This document shows, piece after piece, positions 2,263 through 58,835 of a DNA stretch of 64,000 nucleotides. This DNA is from Eledone cirrhosa (lineage: Eukaryota). The stretch's first letter is position 1; each line of letters starts with the position of its first letter. Position numbers and translations under genes: made by a program. Below the pieces are notes generated by a model. It did no database searches and had not been told where the DNA came from. It worked only from the letters and a program-made list of their open reading frames with translations. The stretch spans positions 316,944,001 to 317,008,000 of the forward strand of contig OZ024742.1 of assembly GCA_964016885.1 (NCBI GenBank), written 5' to 3'.

Positions 2263-2470
2263 TAACAAACAAAGTGTGGTAAGGAACCAGGTGGACCAGA
2301 ACGCACCAGAGTACTCAATATGTTGGGTATTAGAGTGGGTAATAGGAAAAGAGTCAGGACCCTGACGGCTGAGCTCCGGCCGTTTCGTCAGCTAGATCCG
2401 AACTGGAGTTCTGATCTAGTTGTCGAAACGACCGGAGCTCAGCCGTTGGGCTCCTGACACGTTTCCTATA
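2263..2470 (-). mobile_element. Short fold-back element, family A (3' half of a hammerhead), in (TA)n
   Basis: Inverted arms ~2341-2398 and ~2413-2470; GAAACGGCCGGAGCTCAGCCGTC forms stem III plus a GTC triplet; related copies at 4015, 36450 and 48258. Confidence 0.75.
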
Positions 2471-2477
2471 TATATAT

Positions 2478-2834
2478 GAAATCGTGTATAGAAACAAATA
2501 TTGTTATACTTGGGGAGGGTCATATTTGTGTAATATTGCCAGACTAAATATAAATGGCGTAGACATACAATGTAACGGGAGGAAACAATAGCACCACTGA
2601 CGATGTTGCAGGTGTGCAACGAAAGAACTTTGATAAACTATATATATCTGTTTGAGTCTATATTGTATCTGTATTATTTTTGACCGTTGGTCAGTCAATG
2701 GCAACATTGAGGACCGAATAAATTAGATTACCGATATAAAAGACACACAAGCGAAAAGCGAAAACCATGTGAGTCTGTTCTGTTATTAGTTCTGGCAATA
2801 TTACACAAATATGACCCTCCCCAAGTATAACAAT
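2478..2834. mobile_element. Short PLE-like element with inverted ends and a hammerhead-like core
   Basis: ~50-bp inverted repeats at 2497-2550 and 2782-2834; CTGACGA-TGTTGCA-GGTG-TGCAAC-GAAA at 2597-2624; (TA)n on both sides. Confidence 0.65.
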
Positions 2835-4014
2835 ATATATATATATATATATATATATATATATATATATATATATATATATATATATATATATATATAT
2901 ATATATATATATATATATATATATATATATATGTATATATATATATATATATGTATATATATATATAATATACATATACATATATTTATATATATATATA
3001 TATATATACCCTTGGGCCCTCAATTCTATCTAAAATGGCCATGAAATAGGAAAGAATAGAAATGAGTGTAGATATAAAAAGGAAGAAGTAGAAGAATCGA
3101 GGCCCAAACGATACCGGTACTTTATTTATCGACTCCGATATATGGATAGGCATAGCAGAATCCGGAAACATTGAATGGGAAGTACAGAGAGACGGAACAA
3201 TTAGCGCAATGTATTTAACCTGACATTCTTTTGACTATCAACTGCACAGTAGAACTTATGGTGTGTGTGTTCGTGTTTTTATGTGTGCGTGAGTGTGCGT
3301 CTCTGTGCATATACATTTAGGTTTAATGTTGGCATCGAAAACGTTGGTACTAAATGAGTGTAGCAGGATTTATTTATTTATAGAAATTCATATGAATTAA
3401 ATTGAGGCTGGTTTATTCATTTCAAATTGAAAGACATGAAGCAGAAAAGTAACTTTCTCAGTTAACTTCAACCATCCATTTGCGCTCAATTATATATTTC
3501 ATATAGCCTAAACAAACAGATCAACACATAATTTATCTAAGAATTCAATTATCAATATGTATATATATATATATATATATATATATATATATATATATAT
3601 ATATATATATATATATATATATATATATATGCAAAAGTTTTATTTAAAATGTTGGGTTACAACGAGTAAATATTTTATAACTGATATAAAAGCACTCAAC
3701 AGAATTTTGGAGTATTTTACGATATTAAACAAATGGAAATTACATTTATAAAACAATATTTATTTCATTATATATATTTCAGGGATATCATATTAAAAAT
3801 ATGGTATGCCCTCTTCAGACAAAATACAAAATATAGACAGTTTTATAAATAAATTTGACATACCTTAGAGTTTACAACTTCCATTTAAAAAGTTGTTATA
3901 TATATATTTATATATGTGGGAAGGGGGTGTATAATGTGGGTTAGACAATAAAAACGTTTTAAAGTGAAACTTCGTTATATTTAACATATATATAAGTATA
4001 TATACACATATATA

Positions 4015-4221
4015 TAACAAAGGAGTTGTGGTAAGGAACCAGATGGACCATAACGCACCAGAGTACTCAATACTTAGGGTAGTAGAGTGGGTAATAGAAG
4101 AAAGTATGACCCCGACGGCAGAGCTCAAGCCGTTTCGACGGCTATTTCTGGACTCTATTTCTTGAGTCCAGAAATAGCCGTCGCAATGGCTTGAGCTCTG
4201 CCGTCGGAGGTCATGCTTTCA
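4015..4221 (-). mobile_element. Short fold-back element, family A
   Basis: Homologous to 2263-2470; hairpin centred near 4158; (TA)n flanks. Confidence 0.75.
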
Positions 4222-4252
4222 TATATATATATATATAATTTTAATATACATG

Positions 4253-55900: not shown

Positions 55901-56344
55901 CGGGGCAGGCCCCTACGTAGTCCCAGCGTGCATCTAGGATACCATTCCAGTCCCCCACTAATAGCAAGGAGCGGGACGTCCCTAGAAAAGTCTCCAGACG
56001 AAAGGGCCGTAGGCGGCTACCAACCTAAACGCTCCGCCTTTACCACTGCCAAGGTCCAGAACCACTAGTCGACCCTCCGGGTCCAAATGTACCATCTGTG
56101 TTGCGAGACCCAGATGTTTTTGCAGCAGAACGACAACTCCACCCCCACCTCCGGGCTGACAGAGAGATGCGTGCATCTCAAAGTCATCAAAGGTGGGGGC
56201 CAGCTGTCGCACGTTGCTGATCCGGGCCTCGCAAATAACCATCACATCTATACGTTGTGACCTGAGGTCATTTAGAAGCATTGCTTGCTTCCAAGTTGAG
56301 CCCAGGCCACGCGCATTTAAACAGCCTACTCTTAGCATAGCCAT
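52935..56344 (-). CDS. LINE ORF2 (AP endonuclease, reverse transcriptase, CCHC), frameshifted near 56002
   Basis: MAMLRVGCLNARGL..ICE..DPEGRLV..YGP / LLVGDWN..SYLDRFL..SDHK; SPGLDGLPYE, FRPITLLN, DQSKAFDRVDH, QGCPLS, YADD, LLGVWF; CPRC-x8-H-x4-C. Confidence 0.93.
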
Positions 56345-56368
56345 GTTGGTGGTGAAGAGAAAAGGCAC

Positions 56369-58098
56369 TTACCTCTCTGCGTCCCGGGTATCGGGCTGCA
56401 CAATTTCCATTAGGGTGGGGGATGGGTTGTTGGGTGGGGTGGTGGTTTGTGGAAGTGTGGGGGCATCAGTGTGTTGTGTGGTTGGGGAGCTTGGAGTTGT
56501 GTGGGTGTTTGGGGAGGGGGTGGGATAGTTTTTTAGGAGGACGCGGTTAATGGGCCCGACGCAGGGGGGACCCACGTCCTCTTTAAAATTGTTTTTTAAA
56601 GTTTTATAGGTGTCCTGTGGGGCCTTAATCATTTTGAGGTGGGGGAAATCCCCTGCCTGGGTGAAGTTAGGCCCTTGTGTTTTTATTAGATTGTTGTTGT
56701 ACACAATGTTTAACAGTTTTTTGTTTCTTGTATTTATGTATGTGTATGCATGTTTTTGTTTTTGTGTGGTGTTTTTTGTTTGCTGTTGTTGTGAGCTCTT
56801 TTGTGTTGGTGTCAGTGTTATGTTTTGGGGAGGGGTTTTTTTCATTTGTGTGTCTGAGGTGTGTTTTCTTTTTTTTCTTTTGATTGTGTGAAAGTGCTCC
56901 TCCTCGTCTGACGACGAACTAGGGTCATCTTCCACGTTGGAGGGGAGGGGTATATTTTCGGGTTGTGTTTGCGGTACGGGTGTTTTGGAAATTGTTTTTG
57001 TTTTTTGAGTGGAGGGGATGGGTTGGACATTGTTTTGTTTTGGTTTGAGCTGTGGTGGTTGTTTTTGTAGTGGTAGTTGTGGTGATTGTGTTGGTTGTGC
57101 AGTTGTTGGTGGTGTAGGCAGGATTGGGGTTTTCTTATTAAGTTGGGGACAGACAGCCCTCAGGTGACCTCTGGTTCCGCAGAGGTAACACGAGGGCCGT
57201 CTACCCTCAACGGTAATGTTGATGAAGGTTAGATCATCCAGTATGACGCGTTCAGGGATCTGGGCGATCCTTTCGGGCCTCATTTGAACTACAAGTTCGA
57301 GGCTCGTTCCACTGAACGCGTCACCCGATGCCTTTCCCATGGACACCAGCATGTCATCCTCCAGGTCCAGAAAACCTGTCAAAACCCACCATATGTCCAT
57401 AATCGGCAGGATGGTGTGGATTTTTATTTTTTGTGTTCTTCTACTCATGTACGTAGGGTAGAAGGTGTATGCGGTGGATGTGATTGGTTTGATGGACAGT
57501 TTCACTGCTGTGTCCCTGTCCTTCATGAGAATGGATAGACTCCCGTAGAGTCTATCCTTCTGAATGAAGGTGATGTCCTTCATGACGTCTTTTAAAACCA
57601 GCTCTATCTCGCTCTGTGATGGTTGAGCTGGTCTTTTACTTTTGTTCGAGATTGTCCTAAACATGACCGTGTTTAGGAGTCTCTGGCTTTTTAGTTCCGG
57701 GGGGGGGGATGGATTGTGAATGAACCATTTTCCCCGTACACTATATATATTTTCGCATCCGCCAGTAGCTCCTTCGCTTTTGTTATATCTACTGGCAGAT
57801 AGTCGAGGGTTTTCCTTGTCGTCTCGGCGAAGGAGAAATTTTGTTTGTTTGTGTTGTTGTTATCATTGTTGTTGTTGTCACCGTTATTGGTCTTGTTGTT
57901 GTTGTTATTGTTATTGTTATTGGTGTTGTTTTCGTCCGTCGCATTGTTGTTGTTGTTGCTGTTGCTGCTGGTTCTTTGGGTTGTTGCCATGGCAACGTCA
58001 AGTTGTCTGTTAACAGATGGAGAGAATTCTTCCTCTGGCTGACCTTTCTTCTTGACCTCTGCTACTGTGACAGTGGCAGGGGGAAGCTGTAAGTTCAT
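56369..58098 (-). CDS. LINE ORF1 (gag-like, zinc knuckle), split by a 1-nt indel in a C10 run at 57699-57708
   Basis: ATG at 58098, poly-Asn tract; adding one C joins it to the 431-aa frame containing VEGRRPS-CYLCGTRGHLRAVC (CX2CX4HX4C) and a P/Q/K-rich tail. Confidence 0.85.
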
Positions 58099-58444
58099 CT
58101 TCCCCTTTCCTCCTTCGAATTTTGGTGAGAAGCTTCGGCTATTTAAAAAAATATTGACTTTTCAACAAGAAAAAACTTTTTTTTTTTGTTTAACTATTTC
58201 GCCTAAAGGCGCAGAATATTTTGAGAGACTGACCAGATCAAAGTTTGACCTGGCAGTCCCTCTACAAAATGGTACAAAAATTAAAGTTATCAGACAAGAA
58301 TTTCTATAGAAATTTAAACAGAACTTACTCAGCAAGTTATACGCGTGTGTCCATCCCAGAGATAGATAGATAGATAGATAGATAGATAGATAGATAGATA
58401 GATAGATAGATAGACACGGATGTGTATGATTGTGTATAGAAGAT

Positions 58445-58835
58445 TATATTAATAAGAGGAATTCCAACTTTGTCTGATTTACTCGTTTTATTTACAATCC
58501 TTTAAAATTTATAATGGTATTATAATGAAATAGTATGATAGAATATTAAATGTTAAGTGTTAATTGAACAAGTACTTTCATGCTTTCGCAATCTTCAGGT
58601 TCATAATATGTGGTGACAGTCAAGTTTGCAATTTTCAACTGTTGAAAATTGCAAACTTGACTGTCACCACATATTATGAACCTGAAGATTGCGAAAGCAT
58701 GAAAGTACTTGTTCAATTAACACTTAACATCTAATATTCTACCATACTATTTCATTATAATACCATTATAAATTTTAAAGGATTGTAAATAAAACGAGTA
58801 AATCAGACAAAGTTGGAATTCCTCTTATTAATATA
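58445..58835. mobile_element. ~390-bp near-perfect palindromic element with a hammerhead in each arm
   Basis: Centre TTTTCAAC-T-GTTGAAAA at 58640; right arm runs into (TA)n. Confidence 0.85.
58677..58715 (+). ncRNA. Minimal type I hammerhead ribozyme (mirror copy on the minus strand at 58565-58603)
   Basis: TGAAC-CTGAAGA-T-TGC-GAAA-GCA-T-GAAAG-TA-CTT^GTTCA; palindromic AAGTACTT. Confidence 0.8.

Follow-up and report, generated by a model that had tools for sequence, protein, structure and literature searches.

The stretch of Eledone cirrhosa DNA analysed here, hereafter the window (64,000 nt; GCA_964016885.1, contig OZ024742.1, positions 316,944,001 to 317,008,000 of the forward strand), contains palindromes in which one arm continues into a tail and the other stops at a TA word and runs into (TA)n. 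The question raised by this locus is which elements these are and how two inverted arms come to be inserted together. A sequence-only reading had proposed that the second nicked (TA)n strand primes DNA synthesis internally on the element, so that the same template segment is copied twice. The stereotyped geometry that it described was present at all seven of the junctions it cited (7/7), where the duplicated arms measured 45-255 bp. Its figure of 50-255 bp for the overlap is close to what is seen at those sites and fails as a limit, arms ranging from ~20 nt to several kb.

The palindromes were assigned to lettered families. A family A copy at 2266-2469 (minus) consists of tail (2266-2344) and arm (2345-2404) on the minus strand, a GG centre (2405-2406), a tail-less arm on the plus strand (2407-2466) and the word TAT (2467-2469). 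Family H (2472-2836, plus) has a short tail-bearing arm on the minus strand (2472-2548) and a long tail-less arm on the plus strand (2549-2832), which includes the 237-nt 'spacer' and a hammerhead-like core (CTGACGA..GAAA, from 2597) and is followed by ATAT (2833-2836). In a second family A copy (4017-4220, minus) the tail-bearing arm (4017-4154, minus) and the tail-less arm (4165-4220, plus) both end at an initiator-like A with an extra G each (4155 on the minus strand, 4164 on the plus), and the junction belongs to a minor class in which TTC abuts ATAT. Family E (6653-7084, plus) begins with TATA (6653-6656) and a tail-less arm on the minus strand (6657-6843), followed on the plus strand by arm (6854-7040) and tail (7041-7084). 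Family I (9701-10071, plus) has a tail-less arm on the minus strand (9701-9823), a 48-nt spacer, an arm (9872-9994) and tail (to 10071) on the plus strand, and one junction mismatch. Family F (14498-14820, minus) comprises tail (14498-14555) and arm (14556-14685) on the minus strand, a tail-less arm on the plus strand (14691-14816) and TATA (14817-14820).

In the second half of the window, family B (32312-32495, plus; hammerhead core CTGATGA) has a tail-less arm on the minus strand (32312-32360) that joins (AG)n and then (TA)n, with arm (32367-32415) and tail (to 32495) on the plus strand. The tail-bearing arm of family J, a third Hydra-like family (32967-33167, minus), occupies 32967-33120 on the minus strand, and its inverted arm ends at 33167, before its usual site, inside another sequence. 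Family G, a second putative Hydra-clade family (34222-34641, minus), has tail (34222-34313) and arm (34314-34473) on the minus strand, a self-complementary CATATG centre, a tail-less arm on the plus strand (34474-34634) and TATATAT (34635-34641). The family A copy at 36452-36629 (minus) has tail (36452-36531) and arm (36532-36581) on the minus strand, a tail-less arm on the plus strand (36582-36626) and TAT (36627-36629); its translation is identical to the leader of intact 3.5-kb copies, and its arms contain hammerhead stem III and the predicted cut site. Family C, a repeat unit of ~526 bp with a hammerhead-like core (50135-50918, minus), has tail (50135-50252) and arm (50253-50507) on the minus strand and a tail-less arm on the plus strand (50508-50914), to which the 152-nt 'spacer' belongs, followed by ATAT (50915-50918). 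Family D (58416-58835, minus) has a tail (58416-58449) adjoining (AGAT)n and an arm (58450-58639) on the minus strand, a tail-less arm on the plus strand (58641-58830) and ATATA (58831-58835).

These are real structures. The arms differ from each other in 10/11 window pairs and 93/107 family A pairs, the ends recur at fixed element positions in many loci, and the expectation that the structures would be present in raw reads was borne out in short reads of three samples, in which family A ends enter (TA)n at each of the two sites and strand-switch joints are located at the centre position. An origin as fold-back artefacts of library preparation or assembly is accordingly scarcely credible, even though the raw-read support comes from short reads and, at 34225-34636, the only window palindrome tested, no read or contig spanned the locus (centre joints were seen family-wide). 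The palindromes are not an assembly mirror. A sharp read-depth drop at L112:2732 is probably a RAD-library restriction site and was excluded from the evidence.

The palindromes consist of the ends of Penelope-like retrotransposons (PLEs) set head to head, an identity shown for families A, G and J, which link to Hydra-clade ORFs, and D, which links to a Neptune-type ORF. Copies of family A were located in its own genome by sequence patterns. An intact 3,543-bp tandem unit carries a single 717-aa ORF, in which YRDD is invariant in 114 aligned sequences. The model of this ORF (pLDDT 93) has TERT (3du5) as top fold match, with retron and DRT enzymes close behind, and the fold matches listed are polymerases; the GIY-YIG domain was recognized at motif level (VIY..YIG, R, E and N, 98-100% conserved at key positions). 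Pfam and PDB sequence searches gave no match to the ORF. Tandem copies as pseudo-LTRs, an inverted 5'-truncated copy and a one-sided tail, all hallmarks of PLEs, were present. Families A, G and J are placed in the Hydra clade by motifs and ORF similarity: RWR and DKT occur in A and RW and DKT in G, the J ORF is ~50% identical to that of A, and A has the CxCx5C linker, CxxC and CxH around conserved E and N, no CCHH, and insertion into (TA)n. LKDHK/RLINP motifs are shared, by eye, with published Hydra RTs in the available part of the supplement. According to the available text of PMC8557442, Hydra-1_Obim and the Hydra clade of C-terminal EN+ PLEs are alike in these ORF motifs (RW[KR], DKT, CxCx5C, CxxC..E..N..CxH, no CCHH), and likewise in (TA)n targets, tandem and inverted copies and a one-sided tail. 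The differences from the same description are a unit of 3.5 kb here versus 'generally under 3 kb', a tail of 77-86 nt versus 30-40, and a U3-A8 hammerhead core in family A (PMC8557442).

The ORF to which family D is linked ends in a GIY-YIG domain, 340-410 nt upstream of D, that has a Cys finger before it and two Cys within its core. These features resemble those of the Neptune clade as described in part in PMC8557442; by motifs seen by eye D is classed as Neptune-type, Nematis also being compatible. Families B, C, E, F, H and I had no consistent PLE ORF link in the loci examined, family F having only distant Neptune-like fragments upstream at three other loci; their two-end geometry is the same as that of the ORF-linked families. 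Hammerhead-like CTGAnGA cores occur in families G, B, C, H and K, and the family A motif is predicted to adopt a three-way-junction fold with a TTGANAA core (N variable in 26 copies). Rfam gave no hammerhead family among 119 matches, only sub-threshold miRNA-type matches. Being short, palindromic, TA-flanked and very numerous, the palindromes resemble miniature inverted-repeat DNA transposons in TA sites; that reading, or one of later rearrangement of ordinary insertions, is very improbable, because the ends are asymmetric (one end with a tail in 138/145 family A pairs), the arms run into reverse-transcriptase ORFs and the centre differs from copy to copy, and families A, G, J and D already contradict it.

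Each family has two fixed 3' ends, and an arm ends at one or the other. The internal site is not any TA-like word, as had been supposed, but a fixed, family-specific end that corresponds to the known PLE tail boundary; the tail end is a second internal start site of the same kind with its own TA word. Microhomology was scored in 22 one-sided TA palindromes, 10 from the window and 12 from an unselected sample of 40 evenly spaced 10-kb stretches (400 kb, four largest contigs), and was at least 3 nt in 17/22 and below 3 nt in 5/22. When each family was represented by its weakest member, scored at the upstream site, at least 3 nt was found in 9/14 families versus 1.5 expected (P = 1.6e-6), so that the suggested enrichment of TA microhomology was confirmed. 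The assertion that most palindromes fit stands as a general pattern with several exceptions in the window: 4100-4220 and 9701-9994 score 0 under the strict microhomology rule, 32312-32415 meets (AG)n first, 33075-33167 and 4971-5458 terminate in other elements, and 23901-24151 is flanked by TG/CA. The downstream-site words are TAT (A, J), TATA (C), AT (G) and TA (B), two of the five being only 2 nt, and a TA word of 2-7 nt is found at both sites. The TA run is in register at 90/94 and 117/117 scored family A ends, a class that a fixed nick phase could produce alone; in the minor family A class register is kept despite a terminal mismatch (8 cases versus 1). The tail ends of family D, which has no bulged hairpin, slide over 24 nt among several repeat-like words and mostly agree with the flanking repeat type. 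The median pure TA run at the two family A junctions was 22 and 18 nt. Of 127 insertions used in an empty-site search, 16 had a paralog-like match, and many of these were self-matches. Any target-site duplication would be concealed inside (TA)n.

Pairing of the ends is strongly biased. Family A pairs combine a tail with a tail-less end in 138/145 cases, the remainder being four tail/tail and three tail-less/tail-less pairs, one of the latter a tail with an internal deletion; one further long tail/tail case was seen. When pairs anchored by the end pattern were dropped, 71/78 were mixed (P ~1e-14 versus independent choice), as were 14/14 family G pairs in which both ends could be resolved. Most copies are inverted (~21 of the first 30 family A loci, read by eye), and lone copies of either end occur. 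Arm lengths vary independently: the tail-less arm extends at least 15 nt further 5' in 37 pairs and the tail arm in 4, the extreme being a tail-less arm of ~10.5 kb against a tail arm of 129 nt, and 10 tail arms terminate inside the tail. The two arms diverge by 5.3% within pairs versus 10.1% between loci, and their subfamily word agrees within one edit in 52/59 pairs versus 24% between loci. Some arms could have been shortened by later deletions, and the likeness of arms could come from gene conversion.

Taken together, the genomic junctions are probably best read as the product of twin target-primed reverse transcription that starts at two fixed sites of a single capped RNA. The GIY-YIG nuclease would nick both strands of an AT microsatellite, and two reverse transcriptases would occupy two leader sites 30-115 nt apart, each start site in the Hydra families lying immediately 5' of a putative small bulged hairpin. 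This hairpin pattern was seen in 7/14 cases (A twice, G twice, the C upstream site, B and J), against a background of 48/3,447 random positions, for which the rule was slightly stricter; among 12 single-strand folds none was outstanding except that of family F (z -2.7). The 3' end of each nicked strand would pair with the 2-7 nt TA word at its site, and the upstream-site enzyme would lead, the downstream-site enzyme copying the tail and then stalling or displacing the first cDNA and recopying the segment. On RNA starting at the pseudo-LTR initiator both enzymes would run off the capped end and give short palindromes, whereas read-through or circular RNA would let them continue for kilobases. 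The two cDNA 3' ends would be joined by microhomology, possibly aided by a brief snap-back, and filled in.

Fold-back of a tail-bearing copy is excluded because the tail-less arm is so often the longer. A wider form of this idea, in which the cDNA or antisense template folds back, copies itself and then joins (TA)n by microhomology, has been proposed for rotifer Penelope elements: in Adineta vaga the inverted pseudo-LTR, optional tail, palindromic junction and initiator-like word in the pseudo-LTR are alike, and the palindromes were explained as self-priming on an antisense template (PMC3846280, available text). The tight centres suit it, and for the commonest family A centre a 4-nt loop can be drawn, with the extra base closing it. 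However, a copy cannot exceed its template, and the arm lengths run the other way; the tail-less arm holds sequence missing from its partner, also in window families C and H, the 4-nt loop belongs to the tail-less arm in 5 cases and to its partner in 6, and tail-less ends are also found alone. Self-priming is thus quite improbable and is contradicted as the sole mechanism, snap-back being possible for the joining step only. Internal priming by the second nicked strand, with the template copied twice, is the better fit, with the amendment that the site is defined by the element.

Two RNA-protein particles, each with its own RNA and priming one strand, could give products that are then joined; long arms may indeed differ by more than one whole unit, and homotypic pairs and lone ends occur. 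This route predicts at most 50% mixed pairs, far from the observed 71/78, and the arms agree in subfamily, while tail arms ending within the tail resemble collisions on one template, which together leave it unlikely. Somewhat less so, though still doubtful, is priming of both strands at positions set by protein and RNA structure only, the TA words being incidental or tolerated and no annealing taking place. An anole PLE starts in vitro at target-unrelated sites (PMC11167929, in part), two downstream words are only 2 nt, and family A ends are nearly invariant, so that each site counts as a single independent observation per family. Against it stand the excess of families with TA words of at least 3 nt, the register kept in the minor family A class, and the shift of family D ends with the flanking repeat type, part of which later slippage could explain.

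In 71 and 85 of 138 family A arms the 5' end lies at most 3 nt from the initiator-like A, and at 432 loci both arms end at this A, preceded by A or G. Counted by eye, 97 of the first 100 such arm ends had G as the preceding base. An extra G is frequent at short-arm ends, as expected from a copied cap. At unselected loci the base before A was G in 8, T in 17, C in 10 and A in 0; one ambiguous G was present in 21/50 double-ended centres, and many centre Gs could come from copying of the other arm. An earlier count (88 G, 12 A) was confounded by TTCTG of the other arm, and by context there were 35 G versus 9 A after AC and 19 G versus 37 A after AA. In the published literature, mostly open-access text, neither a cap G for PLEs nor twin priming from two fixed sites was found.

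Inverted copies, one-sided tails and (TA)n targeting are already known for PLEs; the junctions add two fixed sites per family, TA words, longer tail-less arms and one-base short-arm ends. By the yardstick used for L1, in which the internal priming site is variable, the arm pairs appear to show annealing of the second primer by microhomology; in place of the first primer on a 3' poly(A) tail expected of an APE-type LINE, both ends are internal, and tandem copies continue into the ORF leader. L1 twin priming, in the available parts of PMC2912911 and PMC12350158, is alike in three respects: microhomology lets the second end of the target anneal within the RNA already being copied, the two cDNAs join where they are briefly complementary, and duplications occur at the inversion point. 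It differs in starting from 3' poly(A) and in being the less common outcome, whereas here both starts are internal and fixed and duplication is the rule. Poseidon_Ac, whose enzyme is a predicted dimer, in vitro cuts and extends both strands of AT-rich targets from two internal start sites bounding the tail, the tail boundary being a reverse-transcription start site; inverted insertions are not taken up in the available text (PMC11167929, in part). As a counterpoint, its start sites are reported there to have no homology to the cut DNA and to be the same for both strands, whereas here the sites are paired one of each, both with TA words.

Extrapolated from 12 such palindromes per 400 kb, ~90,000 (46,000-157,000) would be present genome-wide. 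If the proposed mechanism is true, a single model accounts for inverted copies, one-sided tails and palindromic junctions. That TA-targeting PLEs integrate mainly by twin priming, with telomerase-like primer alignment by TA words and sealing at the copied cap, is in our judgement an even proposition. Among retroelement enzymes, those of PLEs are the most closely related to telomerase, and short primer-alignment words would for this reason bear on the origin of the telomerase-style mechanism. The available text of PMC8557442 calls the mechanism of inverted copies undefined for the Hydra clade and names the route of tandem and inverted PLE insertion as open, and the later integration steps were not validated in the in vitro study (PMC11167929, in part); the junctions give a specific model, directly addressable by the assay of PMC11167929 with an intact young family. 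Palindromic repeats have been tied to heavy A-to-I editing (PMC5625713, in part), and the palindromes described here, if transcribed, would make tight hairpins. If the model is true, these elements would be a source of ~10^5 hairpin-forming loci in the genome.

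The window, animal DNA rich in repeats, comes from an assembly of 3.0 Gb, and self-alignment and inspection showed a dozen head-to-head palindromes in it. Most pair a tail-bearing arm with a tail-less arm that enters (TA)n at a TA word, and the repeat families carry our labels A-K and P. The sequence-only reading had proposed that the inverted arm joins (TA)n through a TA microhomology in a manner resembling twin priming. All seven of the junctions it cited were recovered in the sequence as written, and the enrichment of TA microhomology was borne out, with at least 3 nt in 17 of 22 one-sided events and, when each of 14 families was scored by its weakest member, in 9 of the 14 versus 1.5 expected (P = 1.6e-6). 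The detector used for the window was also run on 40 stretches of 10 kb, spaced evenly along the four largest contigs, and yielded 26 inverted repeats, of which 12 had (TA)n at a single side, 1 at both and 13 at neither; in the window 8/10 were one-sided, and two more were missed owing to masking.

Several other repeats were annotated in the window. An APE-type LINE, which we take to be Tx1-like, is present in two copies 79% identical (52935-57859 and 1-1680, both on the minus strand), with a 1,029-aa ORF carrying RVT_1 and zf-RVT, an upstream ORF of 496 aa, and the endonuclease part in a separate frame at 55982-56368. At 4584-5458 and 5460-6640 two further families adjoin. Family K, a 476-bp repeat in tandem, has its hammerhead-like core on the minus strand and carries a 64-bp inverted repeat (4971-5034 / 5395-5458); it abuts family P, which terminates in (TA)n, without TA at the joint. 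The palindrome at 23901-24151 is flanked by TG/CA, not TA repeats, had two matches only in the loci examined, and adjoins a fragment of a restriction-like-endonuclease LINE (23499-23860) at the fragment's 5' break. A second such fragment (35727-36310, minus strand), with a CCHC finger and a D..D motif, is presumably R4/Dong-like. RTE-like LINE fragments lie at 44787-46125, 46750-47008 and 61992-62775, and in that at 46750-47008 an inverted 190-nt piece is joined to a short 3' end in direct orientation, a classical inversion without overlap. At least 8 copies were seen of a SINE-like repeat about 200 bp long (1900-2098, 8806, 11537, 16076, 18689, 43852, 59007 and 59790), some as inverted pairs, and an old inverted repeat of 70% identity without TA flanks lies at 38682-38976.

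The family-A tail 28-mer (window 2266, 4017 and 36452) has 12,257 exact matches, and intact copies form tandem arrays with a 3,543-bp unit and a 717-aa ORF, one intact ORF being at 355-2508 of locus L112 (minus strand). The protein carries RW[KR], DKT, CxCx5C, CxxC and CxH around E and N, and no CCHH; these Hydra-type features, all conserved across 114 aligned sequences, are those listed for the Hydra clade of Penelope-like retrotransposons (PLEs) in section 11 of PMC8557442, and a model of the protein gave TERT as its first match. Family G (34314) runs on into an ORF related to that of family A, family J (33075) has a related ORF 0.9-1.4 kb upstream, and a C-terminus of Neptune type is found 340-410 nt upstream of family D (58450). 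No ORF link was found for families B, C, E, F, H and I at the loci examined, and the palindrome geometry is common to all. Among the other loci analysed, young copies of family A, about 98% identical, make up multi-kb palindromes at L153-L170 that look perfect and have tandem units inside each arm; recent activity is suggested by their many intact frames of 784 codons. Beyond the family-D tail at L271, L272, L282 and L286 the sequence leads into a long N-terminal ORF of >470 codons in which basic repeats occur, and L271 holds a tail-to-ORF palindrome centred within the pseudo-LTR. Family C (window 50135-50918; loci L144, L147 and L076), in which no ORF was seen, has a repeat unit of about 526 bp and a hammerhead-like core; it resembles a non-autonomous retrozyme, yet shares the palindromes' two ends.

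In family A the tail-less arm ends between TTCC and TAT (the upstream site) and the tail ends 80 nt downstream between TTCGT and TAT (the downstream site), and in tandem copies the sequence runs on past both. Tail-bearing and tail-less arms were combined in 138 of the 145 head-to-head pairs at all loci examined, the homotypic pairs being 4 two-tailed and 3 scored as tail-free, one of which has an internally deleted tail. With pairs fetched by end pattern set aside, 71 were mixed, 4 two-tailed and 3 tail-free (n = 78); independent choice of ends would make at most half of the pairs mixed (P about 1e-14 for 71/78). Family G gave 14 mixed pairs, 0 homotypic and 5 unresolved. Either end was also found as a lone copy. 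The two ends per family match the two start sites and the extension of both strands described in vitro for an anole PLE in PMC11167929, whereas the start sites of that element, as presented there, show neither a strand difference nor target homology, in contrast to the pairing rule and TA words found here.

Downstream-site words were TAT (families A and J), TATA (C), AT (G) and TA (B). The TA run was in register with the word at 90 of 94 scored upstream-site ends (27 others unscored) and at 117 of 117 scored downstream-site ends (12 others unscored), and a minor end class without one C retained the register (8 vs 1). Family-D tail ends were scattered over 24 nt and mostly stopped where the element matches the flank, at TA words before (TA)n, TCT before (TC)n and TATC before (TATC)n; slippage after insertion could be a partial source of this matching. 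Given the register and the family-D flank matching, it is likely that annealing tunes the start within a region that the element sets. A bulged hairpin with compensating stems (ACTC/GAGT, GCTC/GAGC, GTTC/GAAC) was located 2-12 nt past the word: families A and G have it at both sites, families B, C and J at the upstream one. The same rule found none in D (tried twice), E, F, H or I, nor at the downstream site in C. Two family-A palindromes at other loci (L184; L077) occupy different repeats, one in (TATC)n instead of (TA)n with a TATCTA match at the tail end, and the second in a ATATACATGT word with several repeats of the word at the junction.

At the centre, short family-A arms stop within 3 nt of one A, the first base of AGTCC after TT or TC (71 and 85 of 138 arms). 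This A, at 2739 of locus L112 (minus strand), is taken to be initiator-like by consensus, and the genomic base preceding it is T or C. A pattern with only A or G before the A gave 5,877 matches, with G in 88 of the first 100; both arms ended in this way at 432 loci, of which the first 50 were scored by eye as G/G (47), G/A (3) and A/A (0), and the window has a double-ended centre with extra bases at 4100-4220. The arm end is probably that of a capped RNA; a cap G copied by reverse transcription is known from L1 and SVA (PMC2912911). Against a cap-G reading, many of the Gs were possibly copied from the opposite arm, and at unselected loci the base before the A was G in 8, T in 17, C in 10 and A in 0. 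The arm-end site also falls in a type I hammerhead whose core is U3-A8, within the loop of stem II, and a pause of the enzyme at this structure, instead of a transcription start, is an alternative for what sets the arm end. The hammerhead, missed by Rfam, is seen at 2690-2800 of locus L112 (minus strand) with the U3-A8 core, a variable N7 and a long stem II; core counts were 26 copies for TTGANAA and 5 for CTGAGAA, and a published account already reports a U3-A8 variant for Cercyon elements.

It is unlikely that the palindromes are artefacts, since the arms are non-identical in 10 of 11 window pairs and in 93 of 107 family-A pairs, and since raw 150-nt reads (three samples of one study) contain the tail end entering (TA)n (7,398-10,149 reads), the tail-less end entering (TA)n (2,596-2,907 reads) and strand-switch joints at the centre position, with few distinct starts; no record spanned the whole palindrome at the one window locus checked. 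Self-priming, as proposed in PMC3846280, is weighed by arm length, because fold-back of a tail-bearing cDNA would never leave the tail-less arm longer. The tail-less arm reached at least 15 nt further 5' in 37 of 138 family-A pairs and the tail arm in 4, and the tail arm ended within the tail in 10. One long insertion has a tail-less arm of about 10.5 kb opposite a 129-nt tail arm, in others the arms differ by 1-4 kb, either one being the longer, and comparison with other copies shows the window spacers of families C (152 nt) and H (237 nt) to be collinear with the tail-less arm. Self-priming is therefore not sufficient, and it may aid the joining step: in favour of a snap-back there, a 4-nt loop can be drawn for the most frequent centre, located on either arm (5 and 6 cases). 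Divergence was 5.3% within pairs vs 10.1% between loci, and subfamily words were at most one edit apart in 52 of 59 pairs vs 24% between loci; both arms would appear to share one source, with a possible contribution from gene conversion.

The elements and the overall shape are already known, and an inverted 5'-truncated copy, a one-sided tail and a (TA)n preference are described in published accounts of PLEs. A literature search covering little of the subscription literature returned no paper stating twin priming from two fixed sites for PLEs. Judging from sequence, the palindromes quite probably arose when a single RNA underwent twin target-primed reverse transcription from two fixed sites; together, the pairing rule, the bias in arm length, the TA words and an arm end that is probably capped support this reading. 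The closest mechanism is L1 twin priming, for which inversion-point duplications are also described in PMC2912911 and PMC12350158, so that the difference would lie in the rule and its frequency.
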